Source: Azolla caroliniana (lineage: Eukaryota > Plantae > Polypodiophyta). From it: a DNA stretch of 64,000 bases. Location of the stretch: assembly GCA_043228905.1 (NCBI GenBank), contig JBHGNT010000014.1:19716001-19780000 (forward strand), read 5' to 3'. A program made the translations under genes and the position numbers. Positions 9,631 through 40,857 of the stretch are shown piece by piece. The notes beneath the pieces are model-generated. The model was not told the DNA's origin and searched no databases. It saw only the letters and a program-made list of their open reading frames with translations. How positions within the stretch are numbered: position 1 is the first letter of the stretch; the number at the start of each line of letters is the position of its first letter.

Positions 9631-11666
9631 TTTTAAGGTCATCAAGAGGAAGAAATGACCTATAGCAGAGAGTGTTACAAGATACATCTCCCTTGCTGGA
9701 AAGGAGGGTGTAGCCACATATTGTTCACGTAATTTCTTAAGACTTAAGGACACTCCTGTGCTTAAGAAGACAGATGGGACTAGCAACCATTACAAAGAAT
9801 TTTTCCTAACCATGTATGCGAGGGCTTTTAGAATGGTATAAGGAAAAGAAAATGTATAAGCTGAAATAAAGAACCACCAAGCTAGATATCAAATTTCGAT
9901 GTTCTGATCTTTTATTAATTTTTTCCTGGTCAAGTAATGCAAACATCACTGGTGATAGTTTACTTTCTAGTTAGAAGTTCTTGAAAGCTAAGTACAACTT
10001 TGTATGAGACTCTAAAAATCATGCCTAACAGCATCATAAGGGAGGCATTCCAATTTCCAAAACACATATTCCTCTGTTGTTAAAAACGTTGAGGCAGCTA
10101 TCTTTCATTGGCACCTCTGCCTCTCACGCAACACATTACATACACCCATGCATTCAAGTGGGCAGAGAATCACATTCACAGCAATGGAGACCAAGAGTAC
10201 AAAGCTACATGGTCCATGTACCCTTCAACCATCTCTGAGTTTCCCATAGTTACCTAAACACAGATAAATGCTCCATCATTTCATCTCCATTAAAACCAAT
10301 CTGAAGTTTGAACAATGTGTCCCCTTATCATTACTCTTCACATACATACTCGTTATGCAATTCATGCTTGTAATACTACCCCAAGAATCACTGTGAATGG
10401 CAAACCCATCTTATACAATGAGTTCATTGTCATTAATTTTTAGGAGACCTGGTATCGTTTATTTTCCAGCATGGACAATCAGATCAGAAGCTACTTGTAT
10501 TTGTCTCTTTGGGTAGCCTCCAATGGATTTTAACCTCTCTCATACATACACAAAGCAAAATGTACCTTGTGAAATAACGCCTTCCATATGCTATCGTCAT
10601 TAGCTACTTGACTCATGCAAGAATTTGTCATGGAAACATTGCAAAGACTTCGATAATCTAGGTAACTAAGCATGTGTTGTGTTATCTCTGGTACAAGCTG
10701 CTCCATAATGGAAGCTCCAGACTGCAAAGAAGGAAGAAAGTGAAAATGAAAATGAAGAATAATGAACATAATTATGGAAAAGAAGTTCTAGGCAGGAAAA
10801 AGGACAAGATGAAGAAGATGGTGATGATGATAATGAAAACGATCTTGATAATTAAAAAAAATGCCTCTCTGAATCTCAGGACTGTAAAAAGTAAGAAGAA
10901 CGAGAACAATATACCTCTTTCTGAAGCTCTAGACAGTGAAAAAGAAACTTGTCAACACGAGGAAAAAAGGAAGAAGAAGGAGAAATAGAAATAAATCAGA
11001 CGGAGATGAGGATGAGGATGATGAAGAAAACAGAAATAATATACTTCTTTCCAAAGCTCTTGACAGAGAAAACTGAAGAACACGAAGATACTCGGTTTGA
11101 ACCTGAACAAGGACGAAGTAAAATAGAAAGACATCTAAGAGGATGAAGACGAATACAAACAGAATAAATATCCCCTAAACAAAATCTTTGAACTGCGAAG
11201 TGTAAGTTATAGACCGAGAAGGAGGAAGAAGAAAGGGAACGAAATAATGTCTGTTTCGAGGAGTTCTAAACTGTCAAAAGATACATCCATACAAAAAAAA
11301 AAAAGGAAATACATGCATGTTTCTGAAGCTGAAAGAATGAGAAAGAAGAAGCGGGGGAGAAAAAAAGATATAATCTGATCGATGAAGAAGAAACTTCCTG
11401 TTTCTGTAGGCGTAGCAAGGAGAAAGTGTAAAAGAAAAAGGGAAACAAAATGATTATGATGATGATGATGAAGAAGAAGAAGAAGAGAAGGAAAATACCT
11501 GTTTCTGAAGCTGAAAATCGTCCGCTTCTTCTGAGATCTTTACTTCAGGGGAGTGTGGAATATCGGGCTTCAAGAATAAGTTCCTTCGGTTTCTCACGAG
11601 GAGGTAGACGAGGAAGAAGACGGGGACAGATATGGCAGAGGGGGCCAGAACAGAGAAAGCTCCCAT
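6290..11666 (-). CDS. SKIP8: F-box protein SKIP8-like (N-terminal hydrophobic segment, F-box, SnoaL/NTF2-like domain); exons 11666-11499, 10721-10566, 6940-6744, 6545-6290
   Basis: MEQLVPEITQHMLSYLDYRSLCNVSMTNS..ANDDSIWKALFHK|DFTVEQ..GWKAHYAVTKAV..WLNSDYIKCIHPNGE..G|YDAVMQQW..TNVFEYH..WFMVHHHSS matches the plant SKIP8 architecture. All junctions are GT-AG and phase-compatible (0,0,2). Exon 1 (MGAFSVLAPSAISVPVFFLVYLLVRNRR) is the least certain. Confidence 0.9.
8417..8610. repeat. Three diverged 64-bp tandem repeats in SKIP8 intron 2
   Basis: Core aatgataa(a/t)ccctctctg...ccat(c/a)cagtgag at 8433, 8497 and 8561. Confidence 0.85.
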
Positions 11667-11818
11667 CGCAGGGAGGGAACCCTAATTTCCCGACTGAGTT
11701 TCTGTGCAGCGACCATGGAAGCTTCTTCTGCTCGTCCCGTGGGAGCACCACACGGTCGTCTTCTCAGACATCCCTCAGCGAAGGAAAATCGAAAGGAACT
11801 CTCGTGCATCGATCGCAT

Positions 11819-12060
11819 GGTCGCGTTTCTTGTTTTCGGTTCGGTTCTTCCTCTTTAGGTTCGGTTTCAGGCTCGGCCTCGCGACACAGTTCGGCTTTCA
11901 ATAACATACATACCCACACTTCTGTGTAATTCAGGCTCGGGCTCGCGACACAGTTCTGTGCGTCGCCTGGGTCGCGTTTCTTGTTTTCGGTTCGGTTCTT
12001 CTTCTTTAGGTTCGGATTCAGGCTCGGGCTCGCGATACAGTTCGGGATTCAATAACATAC
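11819..12060. repeat. ~90-bp direct duplication (150-bp spacing) just upstream of the SKIP8-like start
   Basis: ggtcgcgtttcttgttttcggttcggttcttc..tttaggttcgg..caggctcgg..ttcaataacatac at 11819 and 11969, with a partial third copy between them. Confidence 0.85.
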
Positions 12061-12529: not shown

Positions 12530-13330
12530 TAGGAATCGGCAACGGCTCGGCTCAAGCCTAAACCGTTTAGATAAACCGGTTTAGACCGGTTTGGCGGTTT
12601 GGCGGCTCGGCTCGACTCGGCTTAGGTTTGAGTCGGGTTAAACGGTTTGAGCTCGGCTCGGCTCGGCTCAAGTTGTGCTAAACCGGCTCAAACCGGCTAA
12701 GCCGATTATTAAAATTAGGTCACAGTAAAAGTTAAAACACTTAAAAAGTTAAAACACTTAAAAAGGTTAAAGTCTACAGTCTTAAGACTTAAGTCTTACA
12801 CTACGACTCACAATCTACAGTCTACAGAGATCAGAGAGAGAGAGCTCGGAGAGGGGCTCGAGAGGGAGACTGAGGGAGAGCGACTGAGTGAGAGAGGATC
12901 TCCTGCAGGCTGCAACCTTCACCCTTTACCCTTCTACAATCGTCCTTAAATTTTGATCCTTGCAAACTGTTTCAATCGTCCTTAAATTCACTAATTGTTC
13001 AGTGTTTTACTTGTTTTTATCGGTCTTCATCAAGTCTTTAGTGTTTTACTTGTTCACTAATTGTTCAGTGTTTTACTTGTTTAGGGTTAGGAGGATTTAA
13101 CATATATTTCAATTTGTCAAGTTACAATAATCCAAACCGCTTCCCAAACCGCTTTCCAAACCGTTTCCTAAACCAGTTTAGACTAAACCGGTTTAGCCTA
13201 AACCAGTTTAGGGACTGGTTCGGTTCGGTTTGGTTCAAGTTTGAGAACCATTAAACGGTTTAGGCTTAGCCGGTTTGGCTTGGATAAGGCCAAACCGGCT
13301 AAGCCTAAACCGAGCCGTTGCCGATTCCTA
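12530..13330. mobile_element. Non-autonomous hAT-family DNA transposon (MITE), 801 bp, intact ends
   Basis: 21-bp perfect TIRs TAGGAATCGGCAACGGCTCGG / CCGAGCCGTTGCCGATTCCTA. 8-bp TSD GTTTTGAG at 12522-12529 and 13331-13338. Dense subterminal AAACCG/CGGTTT motifs, no ORF. Confidence 0.93.
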
Positions 13331-15121: not shown

Positions 15122-16217
15122 AAGTAATTAACAATAATTTATTTTTGAACTGATTAAAGGTGAAGCAAGCCATTAAATGCAATGATGAAGGACCTCAACA
15201 TAAACAAATGGGGCCAACGGCAATATAAGCAATTTTCAACCTATGTGAGGCATTTATTTTCATCCACCCTCTAATCATGGTTTATTTTCCTCTTTTGGAG
15301 GTCTTGAATCTTAACCTCCTATATCAATTGACAAACAATGTTATGAGCCGCTTTGTAAATTCAACAATAAAGCTATTAAAATGCAGTAGGATGCATGCGT
15401 CATTGGAAACCAATACTTCAATGGATTTCACAAAGGCTTCAAGCTTGTAAGAAAGAGGTGCACATTTCTAGACCTGGGTTTTTGTGAAAGGCATGTGCAT
15501 ATAACTAGGTTATGGGGTTTTGACAAGCTAGAAAAGGAGTCGGTCAAAAGTAGAAGAAAGCAAGCTGAAGGCAATAAGATTTCAAAGATAATTTTTTTAT
15601 GTGCTTCCATTGAAAGAAGTATGAGCAAGGCAATATAGTAATAGCCTTCTGGTGTTTTGTTCTTAATAATGTTTGAAGAAAATCGTTTATAAAAAAAGAA
15701 AGTAATAGTCAATAAAATGTTATGTGCTTGGATTCAGTGAAATATAAACAAGGCAATAACACTCAGAAACATGTTATAACTTATGAGCTTCAATTCAACG
15801 AAGTATGAACGAGGAATTGATCAGTTTTTGACTATCTCCACGACATATAAGAACCAAGCGAACAATGACAAAACATCTTAATTATTGGGGGGGGGGAGGG
15901 GTGTCCTAGGCTATAATCGAGGATCCCCCAATACTTGATTCCGTGATGAATGTCCATGCATTGGCCGGGGGTGTCCGCCAGCCAACAAAGGCTGATCTCG
16001 TGGACGAGACGGGACGATCTAAAACAAGCTCTCTAGAAATCCGGACATTGTGTGTGTGTGTCTCTCTCTCATTGTCTCATGGGCCAAATTTGGTCTTAGA
16101 AGACCTTCGTTAATATATCTTTCTCTCCCCATCAGGTCCTTTTTTGCAATCAACCAATCCGTCCGTCCGTCCGTCCGTCCATCCAATTCAGGCCATTTCT
16201 TTGAATTCGGTCCGCCC

Positions 16218-16329
16218 GCCACGTGGCATTCCGTGCCATGGCCGCCACGCGGCAGGCGGGCGTACATCCCCAGGCTGGCGGGAAGGCCGCCACGTGGACG
16301 GGTGGGCCGATAAGATCGTGACACGTCAC
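16218..16329 (+). promoter_or_regulatory. G-box/ABRE/I-box cluster in a GC-rich patch upstream of the CRF-like gene
   Basis: GCCACGTGGC 16218-16227, GCCACGTGG 16289-16297, GATAAG 16309-16314, GACACGT 16320-16326 (ACGTGTC on -). Followed by a CT-rich, 5'UTR-like stretch. Confidence 0.6.
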
Positions 16330-16494
16330 CATCGTCTTTTCCATTCTGTCATTCTCCCAGACACACTCACAGTCTCTGTTTGTCTGTTGGTTCCACAGAG
16401 CGACTCGCAGAGCACGAGAATAAACAGAACCCTAACTAAAGACCGCCATAGCCAGATAGCTCTAGCTTCCTTGTAATCATACCTACCCACGCCT

Positions 16495-16531
<37 letters not shown>

Positions 16532-17099
16532 CTCTGCACAGACCGAGACACTGAGAAAAAACAAACCCTAGTAAAGAAAACAGCCGCCATAGAGCCAACC
16601 AGCCAGCTTCAACAAACTTCAAAGTAACATCGCCATCGCCATCGCCATCGCCATCGCCGTCCCCAAATAAAGAATAGGCCTTTCTCTTCCCTTCTCTTCT
16701 CTTCTTCACTCTAGCCAATGGTAATGCGGCTCTAAGTTCTCTCCCTCCTAGACCTCTCGCAGAAGAAGAAGAAACAATCTATTCGCTAGAGCTTCTTCTT
16801 TCTTCTCCGTCTCTGTAGAAATAAAGAAAAGAAAACTCTGCTCTCTTTAGGCACAGAGAATAGGAGTCGTCCTAAGATAGCCATAGCCAAATAGGCCCGT
16901 TCGACTTCCTCTCCGTCTCTGTAGAAATAGAGAAAAGAAACTCTACAATCTCCATAGCCAAATAGCTTCTTTTACCTGTTTCTTCTTCTTCATCTTCTTC
17001 TTCTTGTCGATCCCTCTCTGGTTTCTGTTAATCTCGATTTCCTAATCTCTACTCGTTTTCAAGTTCTATCTCTCTATCTATTTCCTTCTCTGAGTATTA

Positions 17100-18797
17100 A
17101 TGCATTATGACAATATGATGGCGAGTCTTGGTCAAGACAGAATGAATAAGGCCTCCATTGAACCTGCCGAATCTCATCCTCATCCTCGTCAATATGATGA
17201 AACCCTAACTATACATAACCCTCTGCTAAAGATTCGCCTCATCTGTACAGATCCTGATGCCACAGATTCTTCCAGCGATGAAGACGAAGACGAAGACGAA
17301 GTGTCTAGAAGAAGGGGAAGATTTCCATTGAAACGCATTATAAGGGAGATATATATTCCTGCGGATGAAAGTAACTCTGATTGTTTCAACTCATCAGCAG
17401 AAGCAACGATTTCGCCGCTGCCTCCTTATAACGTGGTTGAAGCTTCCACTGAGCCTTGCCTAAGATTTTCCCAGGCATTTCCGTGGTATGGATCATTAAA
17501 GAATGCAGATACTTCGAAGCAGGAGGAAATAGAGAAGAAGGTTGCAGGAAAGGGTAATGGAAAGGAGAAGAAGGATAGGCTTGATGGCGATGGCGATGGC
17601 CGAGTAACGAGCAAAACGAAGAAGTCTAGATCCAATGAACCAATACCGAGGGAGGGATCATCAAATGGAATTACAGTGAAGAGTGAAGGATCACCAAATG
17701 GATTTGCAGTGAAGAGTGAAGGATCACCAAGTGGATTTGCAGTGAAGAGTGAAGGATCACCAAGTGGATTTGCAGTGAAGAGTGAAGGATCACCAAATGG
17801 ATTTGCAGTGGGAAGAGAAAGATCATCAAATGGATTTGCAGCGAAAAGAGAAGGATCATCAAATGGATTTGCAGTGAAAAGAGAGGGATCATCAAATGGA
17901 TTCACGATGAAGAGAGGAAGAGGATCATCAGAAGGATTCATGGTGAGGAGGAAAGCATCATCAGATGGATCAAACATGAAGGAGCATCAGCATCAGAGAT
18001 CTCCTCCTCATTGTAGCGCGGAATCTCCATCGTCCGTCTTCGAGATCTCGGCCTTCATCGAGGATCCACTCGATCCTCTGCCCACATCACATGGATCAGG
18101 TACTACTTATCACCATCACCATCACCATCACCATCACCATCACCATCACCATCACCATCACCATCACCATCACCATCACCATCACCATCACCATCACCAT
18201 CAACATCACCACCACCACCATCATCATCCTATGCATTCATGCCTGTTGTGGATTGGGATCCCATTTTTGGAATTGCCTTCTTTCATGTCAAGCTAATCCA
18301 TCCCTTGTGTTCCAGTCTCATGGGGAGGTTGTTCCGGCGGGAGCTTCGCAGCTTCGCAAGACTACTACTACAATGCCTGCCCGCGTAGTAGTTTCGAAGA
18401 CTACGATGGGTTCAGATCAAAGACAAAGCTCCTCGACACAATGAATGTGGAGAATGTGTCGGATCTCGGATCAAAGACGAAGCTCCTCGACACAATGAAT
18501 GTGGAGAATGTGTCGGACCTCGATCTTATGGTGCCTCCTCCTCCTCCTCCTCCTCCTCCTCCGCTCCTCCCCTTCCCCCTCCCCTTCCCCGAAGACAACC
18601 TTTTTTGTAATCGAACGTTCCGCCTGATCGATGCCGACATGCCCCAAGGCCTCGGAACCTTTGGTCTGGTGGATTTGGACTTGGACGAGTTTGCGATGTT
18701 CCGTGATGACGGGGAAAACATTATGAATTGTTTCAACTTTGATCTTGATATGGAAGAGCTCTCATGGGTAAGTGTTCCACATGGATGCCCAGTATGA
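17100..18797 (+). CDS. CRF: Cytokinin Response Factor (CRF)-domain protein lacking the AP2/ERF domain; predicted exons 17100-18099 and 18316-18797 (493 aa)
   Basis: CRF signature KIRLICTDPDATDSSSDEDE..KRIIREIYI (17229-17357), SPSSVF motif (18024-18041), acidic/aromatic C-terminus FNFDLDMEELSWV. ORFs 17100-18296 and 18441-18797 are in the same frame. A CAG|GTACT...CTAAT...TTCCAG| intron (18100-18315) removes the only stop between them. Confidence 0.8.
17649..17981 (+). repeat. Coding minisatellite, about 10 x 33 bp (11-aa units of type SEGSPNGFAVK)
   Basis: Units such as agtgaaggatcaccaa(a/g)tggatttgcagtgaag, most homogeneous in the middle and degenerate at the ends. Confidence 0.95.
18111..18227 (+). 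repeat. (CACCAT)n microsatellite within the predicted CRF intron
   Basis: 15 perfect CACCAT units (18111-18200), then CAA and 8 further CAY triplets. Confidence 0.95.
18415..18522 (+). repeat. 54-bp in-frame tandem duplication (SKTKLLDTMNVENVSDL x2)
   Basis: gatcaaagac(a/g)aagctcctcgacacaatgaatgtggagaatgtgtcgga(t/c)ctcg occurs twice. Confidence 0.9.
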
Positions 18798-19609
18798 ATG
18801 GGATGTCTCCTTCAGGCGGAATTATATAAATTAAGATGGCATTGAATTATATTAAGTAATCTTATGTTGTAGGTTTTGCACATTAAGTCCTAAATATCAA
18901 TCCTAAACCTTAAAACCCCAATAGAAGAAAAATACCCCAATATCACATCATGTGGAGACCTTTGTACGCTGACTCATCAACACTACTATACCCTAAACCT
19001 TAGGAGTGAGCACATTCCAAGATTATATATTGAAGAGATTTTTATTTACTAAACCATGAGGAAGTCCCAAGGTTACATAGTTATATGAGTTCTTTGTCTC
19101 GAGAACTCTTTTTGTCCTTATTCCTATGTGTAATCAATCCGTGGGGGCAACTTGTAATTTTGTAAGATGTTTTGAATGTGAGCTATTAGACATTTGAGAT
19201 GAGTTCTTGAGCAATATAAATATTAAAACCATCTTACTCTGACAACCACCATTGTGGCGAATGAGTTCCTTCGGTGAACAAAGAAATTCAATGTGGCTTC
19301 GTCGTTCTAGTCGAATTGGAAGTTGATTGCTTTACTATTTCTTTGTTTCTCATGAGCATTCGTTCATAGTAGCATGTAACCCTTATGTTGGTTATAAGTA
19401 GGTGTGACATGTTGTAACCATCAATCCCCATATGTTTTAACTCTCTCTTGTAGATTCAATGATCAATGAACACATCTACATAAAAGTTATTAAACATGAA
19501 AATAAGTCAAGATGTGTATGGAAATCCTTACAAATAAATTGGACTTGGGTCAGATCCTTTAAGGTAAGAAAAGGTTTTATTTGATCTTTCCAATGTTGTG
19601 TGTCAACAT

Positions 19610-21065: not shown

Positions 21066-24034
21066 TGTTTTCAAGATCTAACTCACCATATTCTTTTCTC
21101 TTGGTTTTTCTCCTTGCCATAGTCCCTAGTACCTACCCATGTATACATCAAGAATATTGAGTAGGATCTTCCTTCTACATACAAATCCATCTTGGGATTT
21201 GTCAATAATTATAGGGATAAAATCTTGCAACCTATTAGCAAAAATGACATTGGCATATATATCTTATATACTTTGCCAATTATTAAATTGGTTGCCAATG
21301 AGTAAACGATGATGGAGAGGGACTTTTGACATCAACTTTATTAATACATTCATTCATGATCTGGGTGTGATGTTCAGCAATAAAAGCCTCCTTTCCTATG
21401 AACTTTTTCTCAAGGTGATGTGTTAATTATGGCATATGTGGAATGCTTTTGTTATTTATGCCGGATATGGAGTTCAAAGTTACATTCAATGTTTAAAAGG
21501 TAATGTCCTATGTATATTTGAATTAAAACACCTTGAATAAAGCAATCAACTATGTTCGTGGAGGACACCAAAATTGGGACCACACTCCATTTCCTAGTTA
21601 GCGATGATTTTCAACATCTTAGTGTATTGTCATTAGTGGGGAACATGCCGAATTAAGCTTTCCAAATTGTAGAAATGCTCGAAAGGATGTTAAAAATACT
21701 TGCACTGCACTTTGCATTGGTGTCTTCGAAAGGTTATTTTTAATAATTGCAAACACCTGAGGATTATTGGACAAAACTCACATATACAAAGATAAAAACG
21801 TGCATAATCCCATTAATAAGGATTTGTGGTACCTATCATAAGTGCAAGAAAGAAGTATATGAACCGAGTTCATAAAATCAACGATATTGTTGGGAGGGTG
21901 TCAATTGATATGGGAATGGTGGCATTTGTATATTTAAGCTAATCCATTGATGAACCCAAACATATAGTATTCAAAAGATGACATTCTAAAAACTTCTCCA
22001 ATGCACATTCATGAATTTTAGTTAGTGAACGCATTGACCTAAATGTTTCGTGTAGGAATCCTAGCCTTTTTTTTTTTTTGAAAGTTTGATCTCACACATC
22101 ATGAAGCATGGCAAGCTAGTGGCATTTGTAGTTTGCATAGAAATGATTTTGTTGGGGAATCACAAAAGGGCAAATTGCTATAATGCAAAGATAAGTGAAA
22201 AAAATCCTATTCTCTAAGAGGAAGATCACGATAAATTAAACCTCATCATTATTCATGTTTAACTAATATTAGTATTTATAATGCTCCAAACAGTAAGCAC
22301 TTAGTAACATAATCATCTTGTTTAATTCAATTCAAATTCATGAACTTTACCCAATTCCAACACATTGTTCATGCCCAATTACGCATCGGGTGAAACGGAA
22401 CTCTCATACAATATACTTGATTAAAGGGAAAATAAATTATTGAACTCTTATGGATTGGTTGGGGGCCGGGGGATTGATATTTTGAGAATTACAAGGGCCA
22501 TAATCAAGGTTATCATTTGCATGAGGGGTGTTTTTTTACATTGCCGCACAATATTTACCTTGGCTAAGATATTTGAGGTTTTAAATGCTAACGTCCAATT
22601 GGTACACTTTCAAACAATTGTCAGTACCCATCGATCTCCCTGTTTTGAAAGAGTCATGTTTATGTACTACATTATTACATACATTGTCATATTTAATTTA
22701 ATTGGGAAGAATGGAAAATGATATTCTACTTTGTGATCTTAACAATCTCGACTCACACACTTTATACATGACCTATGGGACCAAAGTGACATGTGGGAGA
22801 TTTTTATTGATGAATGTTGTGATTGAGACAAAAATTTGTGTAGGGATAGATTAGGGTTGAAAAAGTAGGGAAAGCAATGTTGGATAGTGGAACATTATAA
22901 TGCGTTGGGGATTATGAATGGTGAAAATTTCTATCTAGTAATGGATCGTATGTGGTAAATTGATAATCAAGTTCCTATTCAATCTTCAAACATTGACGTT
23001 ATCAAGAAAAGGAAAGAGGACATTTCCTCTAAATTTGAATTAGATAGGACATATCTCATTATGAATCACGTTAACATCCTCATACATTGACGTTTGCCAT
23101 TATAATGGAAAAAACAACAAAACATTGATCTTGTGATGGATGCAAGGGCAATCACTTTTTTTCTAATTATGAATCATAAGAATGTAACCAATAGGTATCA
23201 ATAATCCATAAACATTGTTCCACCATGAATGTAAATATGAACATTAATCTTTTTGTCATTGCATATAGATGCTCAACATGAGTTGCTCTTGTTTTTTGCT
23301 CCATGTCATGTGGCATACTTGTCCTTGCTTGAAAAAATGTTGGCTTAATATCCAATAATAGATGGTTACTAACAAAAGCTAGTTATAATAACAACAAATA
23401 GATGTACATAATCTATATATCAACTAGAATGTCAAGGAAATTTGATAATTAGAAATAGAGAGACATTACACTAGAGTTAATATTTAAATACGTAGTAAAG
23501 TTAGATTTGATAAAGTGATTTATGTGACAAAGTGCTACTTGAAAATAACTAGAAAAAAACAAGGGAAACTTTGATTGGGGAAATACCACGATGTAAATGA
23601 GAGTACTAAGGGTCTATAGGGTCAATATATCATATCATCTCCCACAATGAGGGGCAAATTTGATATTTCCCATTAAACTAGAGGCATTGGAGTCAATGTA
23701 TTGTGTGAATAATTAAGATTTTAAGGTTTAGAACTCATAAATCACATGTGGGAATTTAAAAAGATGCATCTTTGCTATCGCGATTTCCGAAGATTTTTCT
23801 TTTCGTGTTTTTGAAAAGTTGATCCTCTAAGGACTCTCTAGGAGTTTGTTTTCAAAGGACCGTCATTTTCAAAGAAGAAAATGATCTTTGGTCTTCATAC
23901 TTAACACATGGCTAAACAAACAAAAGAACTTGAGAAAACAAAATAATGTAAAATGCGTATGTGAAGAAGACTATTTTGTATCCATAAATATCAAAAGTTC
24001 ACTAGGCCTTACATGTGTAAATCAATATGATATG

Positions 24035-26284
24035 CCTCTGGTTCAGCGAACAAGAGAAGCCAAGGTGGCATCCCCATGCTGATTTTGCATGGGTCCCTGA
24101 TGGGACGACATTCAAGTACCTCAGATTTACGATGGGGAGGGCAATCCCCAAGGGAGCACAATTGTCCAATGTGCAAGCCAAACTAAGCAAGAAGTTGAAC
24201 CTATGGAGCAGGTCTAAACTATCCTTCGTTGGTAGGGTTCTTATTGCGAACCAAGTGATGCTCGCCACCATGTGGCACTCAGTCTCATGCTGGATTATGG
24301 ACCCTTTAGGTTTGCACGCGATTAAGGCTTCCATCAGGGGGTTTATATGGTCAGGTAAGGACAACCCGATGGGTGCCGCCAGAGTGTCATGGCATTGGTT
24401 AACACAACTGCGGGCCAAAGGGGGGCTTGGCCTCATAGACCCCTTAATGCAGAGCCGAGCATTGCTAGCCAAAATGGTGGTTCGATGCCTCCTGCCAGGT
24501 AAGGGGTGTTGGAAGGTTCTACTTCGCAATAGGTTGCAGGTAGGGACTCCCAAGTATGGTAGGCCTTGGCCCGACTCCTTGAATTGGTGTTGCACAAGCG
24601 GAGTCCCACCCAAGATGGCTTGTCTTCTGGAGGAGAGGGTCACGAACTCCATCTTGCGGGCATGGTGTCACGTACGACATCATTTGGTCAAGCACATGTC
24701 GGAGACACTAATCGAGTGGTTTAGACAACCATTATTTTGGAACCCTCAGGTGCGAACAAGTGACGACATGATGATAGGGCAGCTTAAGGGCCTAGCATGG
24801 GGAAAGCTGGCGCAAACAGGACTCCACTCTATAGATGATTGGCGACGCATGGTGGCTTTAGGAGGAGCCCAGGAGGCCCCATTCCCTCCCCTCAAGGGAG
24901 CCATGAAAATGCGGAGATTGATAACTGAGGCAGTTGATAGGGTTTCGATGGGCGAGGTGAGAGAAGATGCTTGGTTCAGTCTCTTTGATGAAGCTGGAAG
25001 GGTTAAGTTGCTAAAGGGCGTGAGCGGATCAGGAAGAGAGACAATTTTTGGGGAGAGTCAGAGTTGGGGCTCTTGGCACCCTATCCGCGTGGTGGTGCAG
25101 GTTGGTAACACCTGGAAGATAGACCCAGATGTTGCTAAGGTGGAACCCCATTGGAAGTTATGGGTATATGGTTGTCAGCCCCTCGTCGAACTAGAATGGG
25201 ATCCAGGGGATTTTAGGTGGAAACATGATGGAAGATTTCACCATTTCTTCGAGTACAACACTAAACTGGGCCAAACTTTTCAACTGCAGCTAGACGGCCC
25301 CTTACGCAATGGCTGGCCTACATTGGGCATCCCTAACGAGGTGCCCATTACCTTTTGGAAGGGTCTTTGGCGTCTCCACATGCCGGAAAAGATAAAGTTT
25401 TTTTGGTGGCAAATCGGTCATAATGTGATTCCCGTTGGCGAATGGCTAGGTAAACGTGGCAGCCCATTAGGCTGCCCACTTTGCCATTCACCTATTGAGA
25501 CTCTGAGGCATTTTTTGTGGGATTGCCCTCAAGCTCAAAAGGTATGGGATAGAGTGACTCGCCTCCATGCGGCATGTGAAGTGGAAGGAACAACATTGTG
25601 GAGTGTTGCGGCATGGCTTGATCACTCCGTTGATAGGTGGACGAGCGCCCTCAATGCGGATAGTCGGTGCTACGTATGCATGAGAGGCAACACCGCCAAG
25701 ATTCGAGTTGAGAGAGGCTTGTAGTCCGCATCCCCTAGGTTCCCAGACATTTGGATGCTGATTGCAGGCTTCACCCTGTGGTATGTATGGAAAACGCGTT
25801 GCCTAAAGGTCTTTCAGGATCTGGTGCAGCCCCCGGAGGAAGTGATAATGGACATATGGTTTACGCTTATCAGCTGCTTACGAGGGCAATTGGACGAGGT
25901 TTGTAGCCATTCCAATGATGTGGTTACTGCCCATTTGCGTTTTTGGCAGAAATGGCGGAACATGCCTATGGTGACCATAGGAAGAAGTGGCCCGAGGTGG
26001 AACTACCAGCGCCCACGCTGGCTGTTTCCGGCTCACTTACCACCCTCCCTTCACCGTCGACCCTAGGAGGTGTCTCGTACTAGCCATCACTGGAGGGCAT
26101 CGTTTGTAGCTATAAGTACTTACATTAAGTAGTCAGTCTGAAAGGCAATGTAACTAGTCTCATTTTCTTGAACCTGATCGGAGGGAGATTCCCTAATCTA
26201 TGTATAAGCCTCCTTGTACAATCTCTTTGTAATAATCCTTCCTAACTAATGGGAAAGTAGCTTCATTTTGGAAAAGAAAAAAAT
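24035..26284 (+). mobile_element. 5'-truncated L1 (LINE-1-like) non-LTR retrotransposon: ORF2 C-terminal half with zf-RVT, 3' UTR and A tail
   Basis: FKYL..WSRSKLSFVGRVLIANQV..FIWSG..VSW..KGGLGL..PEKIKFFWW..CPLC..ETLRHFLWDC..WYVWKTRC are plant L1 ORF2 motifs. One internal stop at 25722. A-rich tail. TSD atatgatatg at 24025-24034 and 26285-26294. Confidence 0.92.
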
Positions 26285-27092: not shown

Positions 27093-30000
27093 CGCTCCCT
27101 CAAGCTCAATTTTGGTCGACTAGTTCGGTTGATGTCCGCTTCGGCTCGTATCCGGTTCGGACGGTATCTGACACATCCGACTCGTATTTGGTTCGGATGG
27201 TATCCGGTTTTCTCTTGTACTCCCCCTCAAGCTTGGCAAGTCAAGGACCATCAACCCAAGGTCTGACAGGAATTGTCGAAGCTTGTCGGCTCCTAGGGCT
27301 TTGGTGAAGATGTCAACTGTTTGAAGATTTGTAGACATATGTTGAAGGTCGACATCGCCAACTTGAACATGCTCTCGAATGAAGTGATAGTGCACTTCGA
27401 TATGATTCGTGCGTGCGTGGAACATTGGGTTCTGAGCCAGATAAATACTACTCATGTTGTCGCAGTAAAGGAGAATCGGATCTTTGATGGGAACACCCAG
27501 ATCCTTTAATATCCTCTTGAGCCATGGCTTCACATGCAGCCACCGCTGCGCCCTTGTATTCGGCCTCTGTGCTCGAAAGAGCGACGGTTGGTTGCTTCTT
27601 GCAACTCCAAGAGATGGCTCCACTTCCGAGGGAGAAGACAAAACCAGAGGTTGATTGTGGGTCAGCTTTGTAGCCTGCCCAATCGGCATCTGTGTACCCC
27701 TCGAGTTGAATTGGCGTGGCCGACTTATAGAGAATGCCATAGTCCATCGTTTCGCTCATGTATCGTAGCACTCTCTTAGCACAATCCAAATGGATATCTC
27801 GTGGCGTTTGCATGAACTGGCTAAGAAGGCCGACCGGATAGCTCAGGTCTGGTCGAGTAACCGTGAGGTAGATAAGACTACCGATCAGTTGTCGATATTG
27901 AGTTGGCTCACACTCTGTGGTACCAGAATTGGCATCTAGTTTGAGGTTTCGGTCGAAAGGTGTTGCCACATACTTGCACTCAGTCATCCCGAACTTGTAT
28001 AACAAGTTGAGAATGTAGTGTCGTTGGGAGATCATAAGCCCGACTGGAGTCCAAATTACTTCGATGCCAAGGAAGTAGTGGAGCTCTTTCATGTTCGTCA
28101 TCTCGAATTTGTTGGAAAGGAGGGATTTGACCTTGTTGATGTCGACTAGATGCTCACCTCCAATGACCAGATCATCCACGTACAGGATGATGACGATCAG
28201 ACTTTCGGAATCGCTTCTTACATAGAGAGAATTGTCGGATTTTGACATTCGGAAGCCGATTCGATGAAGATATTGTGTTATCTTTGAGTGCCAAGCACAT
28301 GGTGCTTGCTTAAGGCCGTAGAGAGGCTTCTTGAGTCGGCAGATGGCTTTTAGATGAATGTTGGATTCGAAGCCAGGTGGTTGTACCATGTACACCTCCT
28401 CTTCTAATTCGCCTTGAAGAAAAGTGTTCTTGACATCCATCTGGTGTAGGTGCCACCCTTTCGCTACTGCAAGCGCTATCACGGTTCGCACGGTTGTCAT
28501 CTTTGCCACCGGGGCAAAGGTCTCTTCATAGTCGATGCCTTGTGTTTGTGCGTAGCCCATTACTACGAGTCGAGCTTTGTAGCGGTTGACGGAACCGTCG
28601 GCATTATACTTCACTTTGTATATCCATCTACAACCGATTGCCTTCTTGTGCGGTGCGTGAGGGACGAGATCCCATGTCTCATTCTTGCTGAGAGCTTGCA
28701 TCTCCTTGTTCATCGCTTCGACCCATCGACAATCTTTAGCGGCTTCGGAAAAGCTCTTCGGTTCTCGAACTGTTGCCATTTTCATAATAAAGGCATAGTG
28801 ATATGCCATATAGTCGTTGTAGCCGAATCGGCTAACCAGATTCTTGTCTCGGGTGGAGTGACGGAGTTTCTCATTTGCCGATGTGAGTGCTTTCTCAACT
28901 CGGGGTGACCTCATAAGAGGCACATCAAAGCCATTGAACTCACTATCAAGTGAATGAGTCGATTCGTTGCCATCGAAGTGATCGTCTTCATATTCCGGCA
29001 TTTTGGCTTTCCCTTTGTCCATCTTTGGACTTGGCCGAGATTAGCTTTGGTTGCTCGGAGGCTCTTGTGGTTCGCTCAATCTAGTTGAGATCGGACTTTC
29101 TTCGAGTATTGACCTTAGTTGATCATCGTCTTCTGTGTTGTCGAGGTTGTTCGTAGATGGTTCGAGAGGAGTCGGCTCGGGTTTGTACCATGATGTTGAT
29201 TCGTCAAAGACAAAATCCTGAATTACACGAGTCTTCCGAGTAGAGGGGTTGAAGCACTTGTACCCCTTTTGCTCCTGTGAGTACCCCACGATGATGCACT
29301 TCTCTGATTTTGGGTCAAGCTTCTGCCGCTTCTCATCGGGAATGTGCATGTATGCAATGGAGCCGAATATCCTTACACAGGATAGATCCGACTTCTTTCC
29401 ATAGTATTTCTCGTGGGGGGTGACCTCATGCACTCTGGATGTTGTGCACTGGTTCATGAGGTAGACGACGGTATTTGCAGCTTCTGCCCAATATGACTTG
29501 GGCATATGCTTCTCATTTAGTATGGCCCTTGCTACTTCGAGGATGTGCCAATTCATGCGTTCGGCTACACTATTCTGTTGCGGTGTGTGTCGGTAAGTGA
29601 ATTCTTGCTGAATTCCTTCTTGTCAAAGGTATGCCGTGAACACATCAGAGAAGTATTCCTTTCCTCCGTCTGACCGAAGACATCGTACATGACGCCCAGT
29701 TGTCTTTTCGACTTCGCTTTTGAATTTTTTGAAGTGTGTAAACACTTCGCTCTTCATCCTAATGGGAAAGATCCATGTGTATCTAGAGAAGTCATCGATG
29801 AAGGTAACATAGTACCAACATCCTCCGAACGTAGCCGTCTGTGCCGGTCCCCACACATCCGAGTGGACTACATCCAATAGGCCTTTGCTCACATTCCTCT
29901 CCTTTGGGAACGGGTGTTTATGTTGCTTGCCGAATTGGCATGCTTCACATACTCCTTCAATCTCTTTCTCTTTGAAGGTTGGGAGCCCAATGACGACTCC

Positions 30001-30598
30001 TTTCGATTGCATCACCTTGAGTTTGTTGAGATTGATATGGCTGATTCTTTTATGCCATAGCTCTATGTCAGTGTTGTGTTTGAGGCCCTTTGCAAACATG
30101 GCCGATTTTACCTTGTTCGCTTCGAGGATAAACATTCGGCCTTCCCTTGAACCACAAGCAATTAGTCAGCCTTCCTTCTCGATGAAGCAACCTCCTTGGT
30201 TGAATTGAATTTGCATCCCTTGCTCCACAATTTGGCTGACCGAGACCAAATTCTTCGTTATGGTGGGTACATTTTTTATGCAAGTTTGTTCACCTTCTTT
30301 CCCGAATGGGACATTGCTGACATGCCGAATCGGATGAGTGGTGTCGTCTCCGGTCTCGACATAAACGGGTCAATCCGGCTCTCGAAGGTCTTTGAAACAT
30401 TCTTGATGGGACTTCATATGGTTCGAACCACCGGAGTCAACGAACCATACATCTTCCAGATTGGAGGCATTAGTCGAAGTAGAGGCCGACATAGGATTTG
30501 CTCTATGTCTCATTACAAACATTCCGCCATGATCTCCATGTTAACCGTTCTGCTGGAACACCTTCGATATGCCTACGAGCTATCGGTATCAAGGGAAG
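26701..30598 (-). mobile_element. Ty1/Copia LTR retrotransposon, 3' portion (PR, GAG-pre-integrase, IN, RT, RH, 3' LTR); gag and 5' LTR missing
   Basis: PR WFVDSGGSNHM (~30450), LWHKRISH..CEACQFGK, HSDVWGP, LRSDGGKEY, YKARLV, QMDVKNTFL, YVDDL, YTDADWAG, TNHIEVHYHF. Several stops and frameshifts. PPT agcttgagggagcg abuts TGTTGAG at 27092. Confidence 0.95.
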
Positions 30599-32636: not shown

Positions 32637-35600
32637 ACACGATATGAAAACTAGTAAAATAATTATTTACGATTAACTTAATATATTGATATGGAAAGAT
32701 AGATGTGTTCAAGAGCTTCATAGCATATTTTACTATGCATAAAACGGATAAAGAAGTATTAAGTTATGTGAGTGTGAAGTTTGAAGAAAAGAAAAGAAAA
32801 GACAAAACTGTGAGATATCCCACATAGATAGGACAACATTGGAATCCAGAATATATAAGGGAAACCAAAATATATTCATTCTATCAATGTGTGGAGCATA
32901 GAATGTTCAAGGTGACTTGGGCTACATTGTGTGGTGTGCACGCTTTGGGCATATGCATGTATGCACAATTGTGTTAATGCTTTGGGCGTACGCGGGTGTG
33001 TGCATGGTCGCGTGGATGTTTTTGAATGTACGCGCATGTGTAAGTTTCGAGCGTACGCGTGGACGTTTTGGACGAACGCGTGTGTGCGCACGCGCGCATG
33101 TGTGGATTCTATCAATGTGTGGAGCATAGAATGTTCAAGGTGACTTGGGCTACATTGTGTGGTGTGCACGCTTTGGGCATATGCATGTATGCACAATTGT
33201 GTTAATGCTTTGGGCGTACGCGGGTGTGTGCATGGCCGCGTGGATGTTTTTGAATGTACGCGCATGTGTAAGTTTCGAGCGTACGCGTGGACGTTTTGGA
33301 CGAACGCGTGTGTGCGCACGCGCGCATGTGTGGATTCGTACACTACGGCGCGGTCGAGACTTTTGCGCGCGGATGCGTACACGGTGCGGGTTGGATGCCT
33401 TGGGCGTACGCGCATGTGCATGGCCGCGTGGATGTTTTCGGATGTACGCGTGTGTGCAAGTTTCGGGCGTACGCGTGGACGTTTTGGACGGACGCGTGGA
33501 TGCGTACACTACGACGCGGTCGGGACTTTTGCGCGCGGACGCGTCTACATTTTGGTTGCGACGCACGTACGGATTGCGCATGGGCTAAACTTTATGGATG
33601 ATTGTGTCATTTGGCTGAATTATACAGACAGTCGCATGCAACCAAAAGCCAAGGCGATGCAACTAAAAGTAAAAGGCATGCATCTAAAAATGGAAGCATG
33701 CAACTAAAAGTAGAAGCCATGCAACTAAAAATAGAGGTCATCCAACTAAAAGTGGGCATGCAAAGTAACATTGGGGAGGAGGATCAACAAGGAGCTTGAT
33801 ATATGTCCCATTTTTTCCCTCCTAGTTTTTTTTTCTTCCTTCTTCTTCCCTCTCGGATTCGAGAAACAAATTATCTCACATATTGATATAAACCTCCTAG
33901 CTTTGTTTACTTGAGCTTTCTAGTAAAAAATTATCTCTCGTATTTATATCGGACCACTCCTTGCATGGTTGTTGGCTCCTTTCTTTGAAATATTAATCTC
34001 TCATTTCCATACCCAACCCATTGTAACACGATTCTGAAATTATAAAGAATCAATTTTCTTTTGCAATAAACTAATGATTTGTCTCTTCCACTTGTTTTAT
34101 GCTTAAAACTTGCTTGTGTTGTACATGTTGCACTAAATCCTTCTAGTCCAGAACCCCATCGGTTCCATGTCACGATTCGCACATAGTGACGGATTTTCAC
34201 AACATAATTAAGTGGTGAACCCGACATGAAAGAGGCGGTAGGGAGGATATCAAGTGCAACGATGGCTTCCACAAGCAGAACTCAAGGAGAGGAATTAACG
34301 AAAGGCATGGTGTCCGTAGTGGAATACATGTTGAAGGTGAGAGATCGAGAAGCTTTAATCGACAAAGTTGTTGATCATACGGTCGAGATAGCTGGATGAT
34401 TTGGTGGCAAGAACATCACGGATTTTCTTGCTACCTATCAGAACGAGATGCAACAAAGGGATGTCAATGATCTCAAACAAATTTCTAGCTTCAAATGTGT
34501 GGTGGAACCAAGGATCCGCGAGCGCGTCATGGAGATCCAAAACGAGCATGCAACTTGGGCGGAGTTCGAAAAGGCGCTTCTCGTTGAATACATGCTTGAA
34601 GACGCATCACGGATGACTCGACATACGCTAATGTCTTGGATTGAGAAGAAAGGGAAGAATATGCGTGTGTCTAGAGTATATGTCGAGTTCGACCAAAAGT
34701 ATAACCAACTTCCAAGTGTTGATCAACGAGTTCTCGATGGAGATAAAGTCCTACTATTCCTGAAGGCAGTGGCTGGGAAAGATCGGCGTGAATTGGGTAA
34801 CTTTTTGGAGGATGAAACACAACCAAATGGCTTGGTAGCCGACTGGGCGGCGGTGAAGAAGGCTTGTAGCCGTCTTGATAAGCGTCGAAAATGGCAAGAG
34901 GAAACTAATATGGAGAATCCACAATTGTGGAGGAGGAAGGCGCCTATGATGATCGAGCCTAGCAAGCCGATCAACAATTTCGACAAGAAAGCGATGGAGG
35001 AATCTATAATCGAAGAGCTTTCCAAGAAGTTTGAAGTGGTATCACTGGCCAACTCAGGTCGACGCGGGCCAAAGGGAAAAGAAGCGTATAGGTGTGTGTG
35101 GTGTGACAGCTTCGAGCACTCGTGAAGGGAGTGCACTGACTTGCAAGACGCGATTCGCAAGAATGTCATCTATTTGGACGGCAACATGATTCACTCGAGC
35201 GAGACCCGAAAGCCACTACAAGTGAACTTCGGAAGAGGCGGGCTGAAAAAGATTATGGAAGAGGAAGATGCAAGGCATGTGGAAGCCATGCACTACACCG
35301 CATCGGCGGGAATACGAGTCGGAAGAGAGAATCTAAAGACGATCAAGCCGGGATTTGGGTTTTGGCCAACGGTATTCAAGTGTGAAAAGAAAGGCAAAAT
35401 CAATTTGGAAGACCTCAAACATGCTGATCGGAATGTGCGACGAGTTACCGGATGGTCGGATCAGGTCGACGATAACACAAGCTTTGCGGAGGTTGTGTGT
35501 GACAACTATGAAGCTCTTGTTGAAGAGAAGAGGAAAAGAACCGGTGAAGAAGATGGCACATCAAAGCGTCATAATACGAGGAATGCAGGGAAAGAAGGAC

Positions 35601-38600
35601 AAGCCCAACCTACGCCATGAAAAGAGATAGGAGAAACAAGCATGAAGCCCGGTGGATCGAGCCAACCTTCTCGGATGGAAATCGATGAATCTATGAAGAA
35701 AGGAAAGGAACGAGTGGCGCCGACTTACAAGCTAAGGTCGGACATAGAACAAACAACCAACTTGCGGAAGGTCCTTGAGGAGAAGGTTTTAGACAATCAT
35801 GTCGGCCTTACTTTGAGAGAGCTACTTGGGATCGCTAAGAAGGAGTTCCACGATACTATCGTGGACTTGATTAAGCGGAAGCGGCAACAATCGGATGAAG
35901 AAGAGGTGAAAACAAGTGCCATAACCATGGCAAGATCCGAAGAGGAGAAGGAAGAAGAAGTGATGGCAGACAACCATTACTCTCGGCCTCATTGGGCAAG
36001 AGCGACAACAGAGACGCCAATGAAGATCGGAGAGAAGAAGGAGACCGTGGTAGCCTTGATTGACCATGGTTCGGAGATCAACCTCATGTCGACCGAATTC
36101 TACAAGAAAGGAAGATGGCCGATCAACACAAACCACGGATGGAAGATACGAGCGGCAACGAAGGCCATGGAAGACTTGTACGGAGCTTGCCCCAATGTTA
36201 AAGTCATAATCGGAGATGTGGAGATGGATCAACACTTCTTCGTGCAAGACTCGGCTTCACATCCCGTCATCCTAGGACAACCATATATCACATCGTCCCG
36301 GATGGAGACTAAGGTGTTCGATAATGGAGCGGCCTTCGCGTGAGTCAAGAGCCTTGACAATCAAAGATCTGTTCAATTCCTTACGGTGCGGGCTAATCAC
36401 GAAAGGAACCAAGATAGCCTTGGAGGCGAATCCTTGGATTTTTAGAGCGGACTATTGAAGCGTGGGGCACAAATAGTTCGAGCAATCATAAGACCCCACA
36501 AGGAAGCGAAATAAGTGGATCGCAAGGAGAAGCAACATGTGTGACGCCTAGCGGTGCATGCAAACTAACATTACTCAACAAGAAGGACAAGCGTCAGATA
36601 CAAGACTTCGAGAAGATGCTGAAAGAAGAAAGCATAATCGAAGAAGAAGAATTCGTGTCTCATATTCTAGAGGAAGCCTCATTTAACGACACCATCGGTG
36701 AAATCGAGGGAGTCGTGAACTTGAGCTACCCTCACGATCAAAATGTGATTTCAGTTAACTCCGTCAACATGTATGCTATCATCGATGAATATCATCGAGG
36801 CATCTTGATGGAGGAAGCTGAAGTCAACACAAAATATAAAATGGTGGATAAGAAGATCAAGCCAGTTGCGGTTCCGCTACCGGAAGATAGCTGGCAAAAG
36901 ATGAAAGAAGTTGCCAATGATCCGAGCTTAAGGGATCCAAAGGCAATAGGTCATGTCTTCACCAAAGAGACGAAAGGAAAGCTACAAGTTGGAAGGGAAG
37001 ATTTCCTTCTCCCCGAAGAGGAGAGAATGTTTTGTGTAATGCTTGAGAGACATGGGAAAGCCTTTGCCTTCTCTCCACAAGAGATCGAATGTGCCGACCC
37101 GAAGATGATAGAGCTGATGGTGATTTTTACGGTGCCGCATGTACCTTGGAACCTCAAGCCGATACCGGTTCCAAGAGCTCACATTCCAAAGTTGATTGAG
37201 CTTCTAAAGGAAAAGGTTAGGATGGGAATTCTTGAGCCATCCAATGCTCCCTACTCTAATAGATGGTTTACGGTGCCGAAGAAGAACGGGTCGTTACACT
37301 TTATACAAGATCTCCAACCCGTCAACAAGGTGATGATCCGAAATTCCGGAATTGGTCCAAACGTGGATGAATTTGCCGAAGCCTTCGCGGGAAGATCGAT
37401 TTATTCCATTGGTGATCTCTACTCAGGTTATGATCAATTTCAATTGGTCGTCGATAGTAGAGATATAACGACAATGAGGACGCCGATCGGGTTGGTAAGG
37501 ATGTGCACCTTACCCCAAAGTGCGACAAATTCCGTAGCCCACATGGTGAATGTCATGAACAAAGTGTTGAGGGATTGTATCCTTGATATCACAATGCCCT
37601 TTTTAGACAACATTCCAATCAAAGGATGCTTGGTGGAAGAAAAAGATGAATCGAAAGATGACGATGGTTGCCAAAGATTCATCATCAATCATATAAAGGA
37701 TAGCGAGAAGGTGTTGCAAAAGCTTGAGGATGCGAATCTCACGTTTTTGGGAGAGAAGTCTGCATTCGGTCAACCAGAAATATTGGTAGTAGGACACTTA
37801 TGTGGGTCTTATGGCCGGAAGCCATCTCCATCCAAGGTGAACGCTATTCAAGAGATGAAAGAAGAATGTGTGTCTCAAACGGAGGTGCGAAGATTCTTAG
37901 GAGCATGAGCATTCTATCACATATGGATTCCACATTATGCCCATGTCGCTGAACCATTGTATGGACTATTAAAGAAAAGGAAGAAGTTCGAATGGGAAGA
38001 TGAGCATACGAGCCCAACCGGAATTGGATGGGTGATAAACCAAGAAGACAAAGAAAAGAACCGATATGCAATCTGATTCGGTGCGAAGGTGTTAATCGAA
38101 AGACAAAGGAAGTGTGCTCAAGTAAAGAGAGATCTATGGGGAATAGTATCCGCGGTTAAAACCGACCGTGGCTACCTTATAGGAACAGAGGTCATAATCG
38201 AAACCGATTGTCTACCTATTCTCGGAATGATATCTGGTTGTGCTACACCGGATATTGCTATGCTGCGATGGATTGCCTATATCAAGTCCCTCAACCCCGA
38301 GATTAGGCATATAAATGGAAAACATAATGTGGTGGCCGATATGTTGTCAAGGGCGAGGTATGACGGTGAAGAAGATTTGCACTCCGACGAAGCGGATGTT
38401 GGCCTAAACTTCTTTACGATTTCTTGTGCTTGGGTGCTAGCAGTGTTCAAAGTAGAATATTATGAGGGGGAATTCATCGAAATTGGAAAATACTTAAGCT
38501 CTCTTACAAAAGATGAATCATGGTCAAAGGAAGACTTCTACCGAATTAGGAAGAAGGCCTACAAGTTCTTCCTCAAAGAAGGACATCTATGGAAGTTTCC

Positions 38601-38994
38601 GAAGAAGAAGAATGGAACTCCACTTCGAGTGGTGTGCAAGAAACAGGATCAACAAACACTAATTGCTAAATTTCATGATAGTGTGTGGGCAGGTCATCGT
38701 GGTATATGGGCAACATTTGCAAAGATCAAGGAGAAGTATTGGTGGTCGGATGTTTACAAAGATGTAGCAAGCTATGTTGAAACATATGAGCAATGCCAAT
38801 TATACTCGAATATTCAACATAGGGATGAACTTCATCTGACATATCCATTATCAATGCACTATAAGTGGTTGGTAGACATAGTGGTTATGCCAATGGTATT
38901 GGGGCAAATGAAATATCTCGTGCTAGCAAGAGAGGATCTCACCAACCAAGTAGAAGCACGGGCGCTAAGGAATAAAACAACTTCGGCGGTTTGT
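32637..38994 (+). mobile_element. Ty3/Gypsy internal fragment, Gypsy B (5' UTR, gag with CCHC, PR, RT, RH, partial IN), no LTRs
   Basis: gag FGGKNITDFL..CVWCDSFEHS*REC, PR ALIDHGSEINLM..VILGQPY, RT KYKMVDKKIKPV..IGDLYSGYDQF..FLDNIPIKG, RH ETDCLPILG..RWIAYI..NVVADMLSR, IN FHDSVWAGHRG..REDLTNQVEARAL, cut at 38994. Confidence 0.92.
32878..33590. repeat. 228-bp tandem duplication plus CG-rich degenerate subrepeats in the Gypsy B 5' UTR
   Basis: attctatcaatgtgtggagcatagaatg.. at 32878 and 33106. Recurring gggcgtacgcg, catggccgcgtggatgtttt and gcgtacgcgtggacgttttggacg modules. Confidence 0.9.
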
Positions 38995-40857
38995 AAGTCA
39001 CGACAACTCAATCTGGGCCTGGAGCTCCTCCTAGTAGTCCCTAAGGGGAGGCTCTGTCTGGGTTGCCGCTTGCTAGAGTTGGGCCAAGGACTCCTTGTCT
39101 GTCTGTGTCGCTCGTTCCATGACTTCCGGAGGTGGTGGTGTTTGCGTCGAGGCTTGGCTGGTTTGGCGGTGCGGGCTGATATCTGCCCATGACGATGGCT
39201 CACTTGTCTGTACCGAGTTTGTCATTGTGTTCGCCTCGGCCATGGTTACCGTGGGGTGGGCGGTGTCGTCTTTGTGTGCTACGGTACCTTCAACACTCAG
39301 GCTCGGGTTCGGAAGAGTGGCTGGTGAGACAGCTTCACTCGGCGCAGGGAGGATTAAGGGCGGTTGTTGCTGTGTGAGTGTCACTAGTTTCTCCTCGGCG
39401 GCTTGCCATAGGTCGGTAGCCCATTTGTCTTGTTGATGCGCCGTTTTGATACGTCGGGCCATGTCCTTCGCTACCCGAGTAGTGTGGTGTAGATTGTGAT
39501 ATGCCTCGACTAAGGCCATGTTCAGATCCGGTAGTTCCATGAGAAGCGAAGCATTCTGTACTTGCTTCTTCCGTCCTATCTTTTGTAAGGCTCGATCCTC
39601 GTGAGGTTCGATTTCACCCATTAGCGTGCGTTGGATCATCTTTGTTTCGGCGTGCTCCTCGGCCATACGAGCGGCGTTAGCTACTTGGGTGCGCGCGAGA
39701 AAATCCATTAACTCGTAAGTTGTGCCCAATCGAAGTAGGACACTGAACTGGTATGCCTCTGGGAGGAGATCTTTGTACCCGAGGACTTTCTCCTCTGATA
39801 TTTGCGTGGTTTGGCCATGCTCAATCGTTCCGACTTGGAGCCATGACTCCGTTGGTACTATGTCCGTGGAGGGGGGGCTAGCCTCTTTTGATTTCTTCCG
39901 TTGGTCGCCTTCGGTTTATGTTGTTTCCTCTCGAATGATACGACGTCTTTTTGGCGGTTGGTCCTGCGCGTGCGGGGCCGGTGGTGTTGGCTCCTCGGCC
40001 TGTTTCCTCTTCTGCTGCCGGATGGCCGAGGGCTGCTAGCTGGTGGGCCGTGGGCTTGGTTGAGGAGAGGTCATTGATGTCCTTGGTGGCCTCTGGCGTA
40101 TGGTGACATCCTCGGGGATGGCCTCCTCGGCCTCATCCCATTCGACACGGTTTGTTGTCACCGCCCGTTGTCTTTGTGTTTTTGGTGGGGGTGGGGCCGA
40201 GGCGGAAACGGGGTGTTGAACGCCTACGGGAGGTGGAGAAGACGGGGATTCTTCCCATTCTTCCTGAGTTATCTCCAAAATCTGCCCACGTTGTTTCCGT
40301 GGTGGTAGTGGTGGAGAGATCAGGGTGCGACGAGGGGAAGCCGAAGGAGGTGGGTAGAGGATTATAAGGAAGTGGTTGATCACAAGCAACAAACGCTTAC
40401 CGGTTTGGAAGGATTCGAGCGCCGCCCGGATTCCTTCGCCTGTGATGATTCCCTAGTCGATTTTGTTTCCCTCGTAAGCACTGATGATGATCGCCGCTTT
40501 GCTCTGTAGCATACTGGTAGGGTTGGTATGCACGAACGCGTACTCCATCAGGATGCGAGCGAGTTCCCCGAATGCCTTGTTGGATCCGCCGTAGGTGCGG
40601 TAGGCTTTACCAGATATGGAATACGCACCAAAGTATTCCTTCAGGGTTGTGGAATGGGGAATCTTGACCTCATGGTCACCTCCTCGTTTCAGGTCCAAGG
40701 CAGCACGAATCATATTGTTGGTGACTGTGTCCGGGTGGATTCGTCGTGCAACCGCTTGGGCATCAGGGTGCGCAGGGGGATCGATCACCTTTAAATAACC
40801 ACCCAAGCCTCGTTCCTGAAGCCAGGAGCGGGTTTCCTGTGAAGCTGCAAGAGGCAT
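38995..40857 (-). pseudogene. N-terminal part of the Gypsy A accessory ORF (continues at 32636-31141)
   Basis: MPLAASQETRSWLQERGLGGYL..AIIISAYEGNKID*GII.. followed by a Pro-rich linker and helical segments. Broken into ORFs 40453-41169, 40036-40392 and 39073-39729. Confidence 0.7.

Follow-up and report, generated by a model that had tools for sequence, protein, structure and literature searches.

Loss of the DNA-binding domain from duplicated genes is a familiar theme in plants, and microProteins are a class of small single-domain proteins that keep an interaction domain and drop the DNA-binding domain. Atypical HLH proteins such as AIF2 also retain the interaction domain and lack the DNA-binding one. 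Cytokinin response factors (CRFs; ERF groups VI and VI-L) have a CRF core, an SPSSV-type motif and an acidic tail in this order, and according to the published family rule no CRF domain lacks an accompanying AP2 domain (Rashotte and Goertzen 2010, PMC3095348). Contacts among CRFs and with AHPs run through the CRF domain, as the earlier note on this DNA stated; for Arabidopsis, PMC3193008 reports that the domain alone, as the engineered CRF2 fragment CRFD, which lacks both AP2 and the tail, binds CRF1-8 and AHP1-5. Most Brassica CRFs have one exon, according to PMC6171139. The same paper and PMC6399210 show that CRF surveys drop AP2-less sequences, and a further survey starts from an AP2 profile (bioRxiv 10.64898/2026.10.13.758753).

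We analysed a gene within a 64-kb stretch of DNA, the whole of which we call the window. The gene carries the CRF core, SPSSV and the acidic tail in the canonical order and all in one frame, which upholds the description in the earlier note. It differs from described CRFs in having no AP2 domain, a 33-bp array and a probable intron, and would be a natural counterpart, with a tail, of the artificial CRFD. Its features are given below; X1 to X4 denote the contigs of four runs.

16220-16528, plus strand: putative promoter-like upstream stretch, from the sequence and a tandem-repeat scan, with CACGTG boxes at 16220-16225 and 16291-16296 and a (CT)n tract at 16498-16528
16718-16735, plus strand: 5-codon upstream ORF, the sole upstream ATG frame within 16401-17099
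17100-18099, plus strand: predicted coding exon 1, from the first ATG to the candidate donor; X2 and X3 contigs cover 17072-18097 piecewise
17229-17360, plus strand: CRF domain core, from profile and alignment matches, with a low-confidence model
17648-17970, plus strand: 33-bp tandem array, about ten 11-residue units where AP2 normally sits, also in X2 and X3 contigs
18024-18038, plus strand: SPSSV motif, the putative MAP-kinase site of CRFs (motif described in PMC3095348)
18100-18315, plus strand: candidate phase-1 GT-AG intron of 216 nt, containing a His-coding microsatellite and an in-frame TAA
18109-18226, plus strand: the His-coding microsatellite, inside the candidate intron
18316-18797, plus strand: predicted coding exon 2, with stop TGA at 18795-18797; X1, X2 and X3 contigs lie on 18475-18523 and 18595-18799
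18415-18522, plus strand: 54-bp duplication in exon 2
18534-18582, plus strand: Pro run in exon 2
about 18666-18794, plus strand: acidic tail, in the same frame as the CRF core and SPSSV
18732-18788, plus strand: C-terminal acidic/aromatic CRF motif, from tblastn with P0001, P0010, P0025 and P0029 and a motif table
18798-19196, plus strand: probable 3' untranslated region; an X1 contig is identical over 18950-19196, and X3 contigs show 1-2 nt indels

By its sequence, the CRF core match exceeds chance: 34 proteins among 1.84 billion matched at E<=0.001, 27 of them with an AP2 match, and ten invariant columns are common to this core and CRF proteins in a 14-row alignment. The SP(T/V)SVL-type motif, which about half of CRF members have, is present as SPSSV followed by F (18024-18041), and the SPSSV form also occurs in fern CRFs. 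The core and SPSSV are 260 residues apart, and this spacing ranges from 134 to 543 in 66 AP2-bearing CRFs. The C-terminal motif ends like those of fern CRFs in the motif table. The core was predicted with low confidence (pLDDT about 50) as two beta strands flanking an acidic loop; solved structures gave no match to the CRF profile, a complex prediction for two CRF domains without alignments scored 0.02, and three AP2/ERF clusters from the ESM Atlas, at 0.83-0.84, are no more than a lead. The probable 5' leader at 16800-16965 contains short duplicated blocks spaced 106 and 71 bases.

The absence of AP2 between the motifs held up in both searches. A Pfam scan with PF00847 at E<=10 found nothing in any of nine frame pieces around the locus, as the earlier note had expected. 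The AP2 domains of 34 CRFs were also turned into a profile, and its unfiltered run over all six frames of the 64-kb window scored nowhere higher than -2.2 bits. The six-frame scan also ruled out an AP2 exon elsewhere in the window. With no AP2/ERF domain behind the CRF domain in any frame, the gene is a CRF-derived variant and not a CRF by the published definition. The 33-bp array that sits in place of AP2 had escaped the earlier note, along with the His-coding microsatellite, the probable intron and the in-frame TAA. All repeats in the coding region have a period divisible by 3 in a tandem-repeat scan. The ESM Atlas gave no usable match to the array, and a profile of the repeat unit found nothing clear among the proteins compared. 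By eye, one of these proteins, P0037, gives the impression of a loosely 11-periodic stretch behind its AP2 domain. No long terminal inverted repeats of the kind expected for transposon capture were found around the gene.

The earlier note had taken 17100-18797 as a single open frame and had counted this against a pseudogene. The frame from the ATG at 17100 in fact stops at TAA 18294-18296 after 398 codons, with a His run at its end, so that the span is not one ORF; downstream of this stop the same frame encodes the acidic tail and closes at TGA 18795-18797. The argument from an open frame fails as it was put, given the in-frame stop and a tail that depends on a putative intron. Excision of the candidate intron, with GT at 18100 and AG at 18314-18315, gives 493 amino acids without an internal stop, and only if it is spliced out does the acidic motif fall in the same polypeptide as the CRF core. 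The candidate acceptor is the top-scoring CAG site in the gene and has a branch-like CTAAT ahead of it; the candidate donor matches the consensus at 5 of 8 positions, which is modest. One in three such GT-AG pairs would keep the frame by chance, so support for the intron comes from relatives. Two annotated isoforms of the Ceratopteris gene KP509_23G011400 differ by four residues 18 positions past SPSSV, as alternative acceptors would give. Family likeness in P0037 and P0137 ends 18 and 20 positions past SPSSV, with the protein end soon after, and from their protein letters we read these atypical ends as intron read-through. The candidate donor of the window gene lies 21 positions past SPSSV. 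On this comparison we regard the 216-nt intron at 18100-18315 as likely present. No joint across it was listed for the contigs of X1-X4; most of 18098-18440 is uncovered in all runs, which speaks neither for nor against a joint, and the repeat at 18101-18234 was skipped. In one X3 contig the match breaks off at 18097, and its remaining 40 letters are compatible with a spliced or an unspliced form. Position 18768 has a strong donor-like site as well, but an X3 contig continues across it and we left it out of the gene model.

The four runs, whose RNA nature is presumed, differed in what they covered; X4 had no matching contigs, and 15800-16942 and 19229-19600 are also uncovered in all of them. 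The placements of X1-X3 contigs given here are from the 23 of 45 pieces listed. Three X1 pieces are identical to the window (18475-18523, 18595-18683 and 18950-19196). X3, from another organism, has contigs at 17072-17270, 17276-17653, 17740-18097 and 18595-18799, in which about 5-13 percent of letters differ, and X2, also from another organism, has contigs at 17443-17774, 17781-17955 and 18595-18749. The AP2-less middle is common to X2 and X3, which makes an assembly error, named in the earlier note as a possible refutation, unlikely.

Within the coding part, all six indel rows among those listed (three sites) are multiples of 3; two of the three sites fall in repeats of 3 or 6 bases, in which slips that keep the frame are to be expected in any case. 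Past the stop, all five of the rows listed (four sites) are indels of 1-2 nt. We scored 46 letter differences between X3 and the window, made up of 37 of the 40 rows listed from a set of 114 plus 9 of 9 in a second set; the three rows excluded belong to the paralog's contigs or are absent in X3. They change 41 codons, 13 synonymously and 28 non-synonymously, with no stop. Random changes would give 9.3 synonymous codons (P=0.11), in a model without transition bias, which would weaken the excess, and the chance of finding no stop is P=0.09. At the sequence level this is a weak sign of selection on codons and is compatible with neutrality. No stop is visible in the coding part of the X2 and X3 relatives, and the one in-frame stop of the window gene lies inside the probable intron.

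The search for AP2-less orthologs and an AP2-bearing paralog that the earlier note proposed was answered in part: the contigs supplied the AP2-less middle and the protein matches an AP2-bearing paralog (P0002/P0037), while the protein collection yielded no ortholog for either residue range. Residues 1-180 matched 4 of 443 candidates of near length, all AP2-bearing, and residues 88-334 matched 0 of 3,334 short proteins. The closest paralog, P0002/P0037, has an AP2 domain (Pfam 39.8 bits), a near-identical CRF core and a probable intron shortly past SPSSV; its middle cannot be aligned with the window protein. BLASTP against P0037, the cluster mate of P0002, aligned the CRF region only, so the core is kept and the rest is unalignable. 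Other X1-X3 contigs match only the CRF core and tail, and, translated by hand, their loose ends agree with the sequence on either side of the P0002 core.

A tree was built from 48 selected rows and 112 motif columns, with AP2 columns masked for five AP2-less rows and the tail for two; in it the window protein is sister to the AP2-bearing P0037 with support 95/94, on 42 shared columns only. The pair joins Adiantum and Ceratopteris proteins in a wider group (91/87), which places the gene within the CRF clade by descent, on few columns, and makes a fern origin likely. Among the fern-type CRFs, R or Q replaces the W of the WG motif in the AP2 domain of P0002 and P0105, and AP2 is degenerate in P0137, half deleted in P0066 and absent in P0025 and P0123. 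Judging from these domains, the clades of P0002, P0037, P0137, P0066 and P0105 may tend towards relaxed DNA binding. Two further proteins, P0005 and P0006, have repeated CRF and AP2 units per chain and are possibly fused gene models.

AP2-less CRF-domain proteins are not unique to the window and are present in other annotated genomes. We searched with a CRF-only profile and considered 120 of its 657 matches; three AP2-less rows were part of the query profile, so the search favours AP2-less proteins. Of 144 CRF-domain proteins compared, 17 have no AP2 by the AP2 profile. Eight of these 17 are short or cut off and nine have a C-terminal tail: two each from Ceratopteris richardii, Tasmannia lanceolata and Tetracentron sinense, one each from Rehmannia glutinosa and Vitis vinifera, and one unnamed. 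For the Vitis and Rehmannia proteins, the gene model may bridge a broken AP2. The Ceratopteris genes KP509_23G011400 (P0123/P0145) and KP509_32G042500 (P0025), annotated as hypothetical proteins, resemble the window gene in having the CRF core and tail and no Pfam AP2 match; unlike it, they lack the repeat array, and each clusters with other AP2-bearing CRFs (support 99/88 and 87/84). P0123 aligns over its own length with its AP2-bearing clade. Because each groups with AP2-bearing CRFs, the fern AP2 losses were probably separate on this tree, although the AU test did not reject trees that force the fern AP2-less rows together (p 0.09 and 0.27).

The AP2-less CRF-domain gene is thus real, common to related organisms and contrary to the stated family rule, and the phenomenon is apparently recurrent. 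In the non-subscription literature searched, including parts of PMC11062136 and PMC3875448, we found no description of a natural AP2-less CRF. A natural one kept across related species breaks the rule that the CRF domain always comes with AP2, and offers a natural tool for asking which roles of the CRF domain are independent of DNA binding and whether a CRF dimer requires a DNA-binding domain in both partners. A wider claim would be that AP2-less CRFs have evolved repeatedly, in ferns and flowering plants, as regulators of cytokinin signalling that do not bind DNA, overlooked by surveys that discard AP2-less proteins, with the window gene as a conserved member in which an 11-residue repeat module replaces AP2; we consider this doubtful.

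What might the protein do? We tentatively favour a non-DNA-binding partner or co-factor of CRFs that arose as an AP2-less, spliced duplicate and kept an activation-type tail, ahead of a decaying duplicate, a pure decoy, a truncated product and an array module, in this order. The CRF duplicate would lack AP2 and have the 33-bp array instead, splicing of 18100-18315 would give the 493-residue protein, its CRF domain would bind AP2-bearing CRFs and phosphotransfer proteins, and the retained acidic tail would make it a co-factor riding on DNA-binding partners and not a pure poison. We infer transcription, the intron, binding to partners and whether the effect is positive or negative. Since the CRF domain alone suffices for CRF and AHP binding in Arabidopsis, partner binding is, by analogy, a likely activity of the window protein; both this binding and the link to cytokinin come from work on Arabidopsis and not on ferns. 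As to the tail, the activity of CRF5 reportedly depends on its C-terminal domain (cited in PMC6171139), and PMC6981732 links acidic/aromatic motifs to activation in ERFs.

The strongest competitor, less probable than the co-factor and still a serious contender, is a slowly decaying duplicate that lost AP2, is transcribed from an inherited promoter and has repeats expanding under little selection. The synonymous excess, which is not significant, the in-frame stop in the genomic frame and the missing ortholog in the protein collection speak for it; several young repeat expansions in the coding region fit relaxed constraint, and P0066, P0137 and P0025 are CRFs whose AP2 is at one stage or another of decay. 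However, the gene is kept in three organisms that differ in up to about 10 percent of letters, and neither a stop nor an indel that shifts the frame is visible in its coding part, whereas the 3' end has four sites with indels of 1-2 nt; the coding repeats all keep a period divisible by 3, and likeness to the paralog persists in the CRF core and tail when the rest has lost it.

Another reading, in line with the earlier note, is a dominant-negative decoy that would titrate CRFs or AHPs into non-activating complexes. The absence of AP2 stands, and partner binding is plausible by analogy; since the acidic tail is kept, a purely dominant-negative role does not suggest itself, and we consider it unlikely. 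The tail would be superfluous in a decoy, yet it is kept here and in nine of the 17 AP2-less proteins compared. The protein is also long. Like microProteins and AIF2, it has the interaction domain without a DNA-binding domain, but it belongs to another family and is not a small single-domain protein (398 residues unspliced, 493, or about 490, with the activation-type tail if spliced). ERF-type AP2 domains are able to bind DNA as single domains, so a heterodimer with an AP2-less partner may still bind. DNA binding that depends on dimers is only speculated in PMC3355611. The kept tail is the one point on which we would choose the co-factor over the decoy.

Were there no intron, the product would be the 398-residue protein with a His-run end and without the acidic tail, a truncated decoy or an unstable protein. 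This form is the plain ORF, the donor is modest and no contig in the mostly uncovered region shows the joint, but the tail past the stop keeps its frame, its X2 and X3 indels all being in-frame, and relatives break at the matching place after SPSSV, which leaves this outcome improbable. Least probable is that the 11-residue array is a new folded, beta-solenoid-like module offering a binding surface in place of AP2: the array recurs in X2 and X3 contigs, and in a single-sequence model each repeat forms one strand, pLDDT being about 70 across residues 190-240, but structure predictors often coil perfect repeats this way, the array folded alone stayed below pLDDT 70 throughout (mean 47.6), a fold search with the low-confidence model gave 0 matches at E<=0.001, and of the array's 13 changed codons 11 alter the amino acid.

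Elsewhere in the window, a purine-rich low-complexity stretch with a 151-bp duplication at 10700-12060 could mark the 5' end of a gene on the minus strand, and a 165-codon frame at 11432-11929 has no Pfam match. A MITE-like element of about 800 bp (12530-13330) has 39-nt inverted repeats at its ends, 82 percent complementary, and internal hairpins. Broken retroelement remains at 24021-25724, 27448-30165, 34400-44271 and 52008-52508 are LINE-like (zf-RVT, RVT_1), copia-like (RVT_2) and, on opposite strands, two gypsy-like. A gene for a transporter of the POT/NPF family (PF00854), with at least two exons, lies on the plus strand at 58389-59964.
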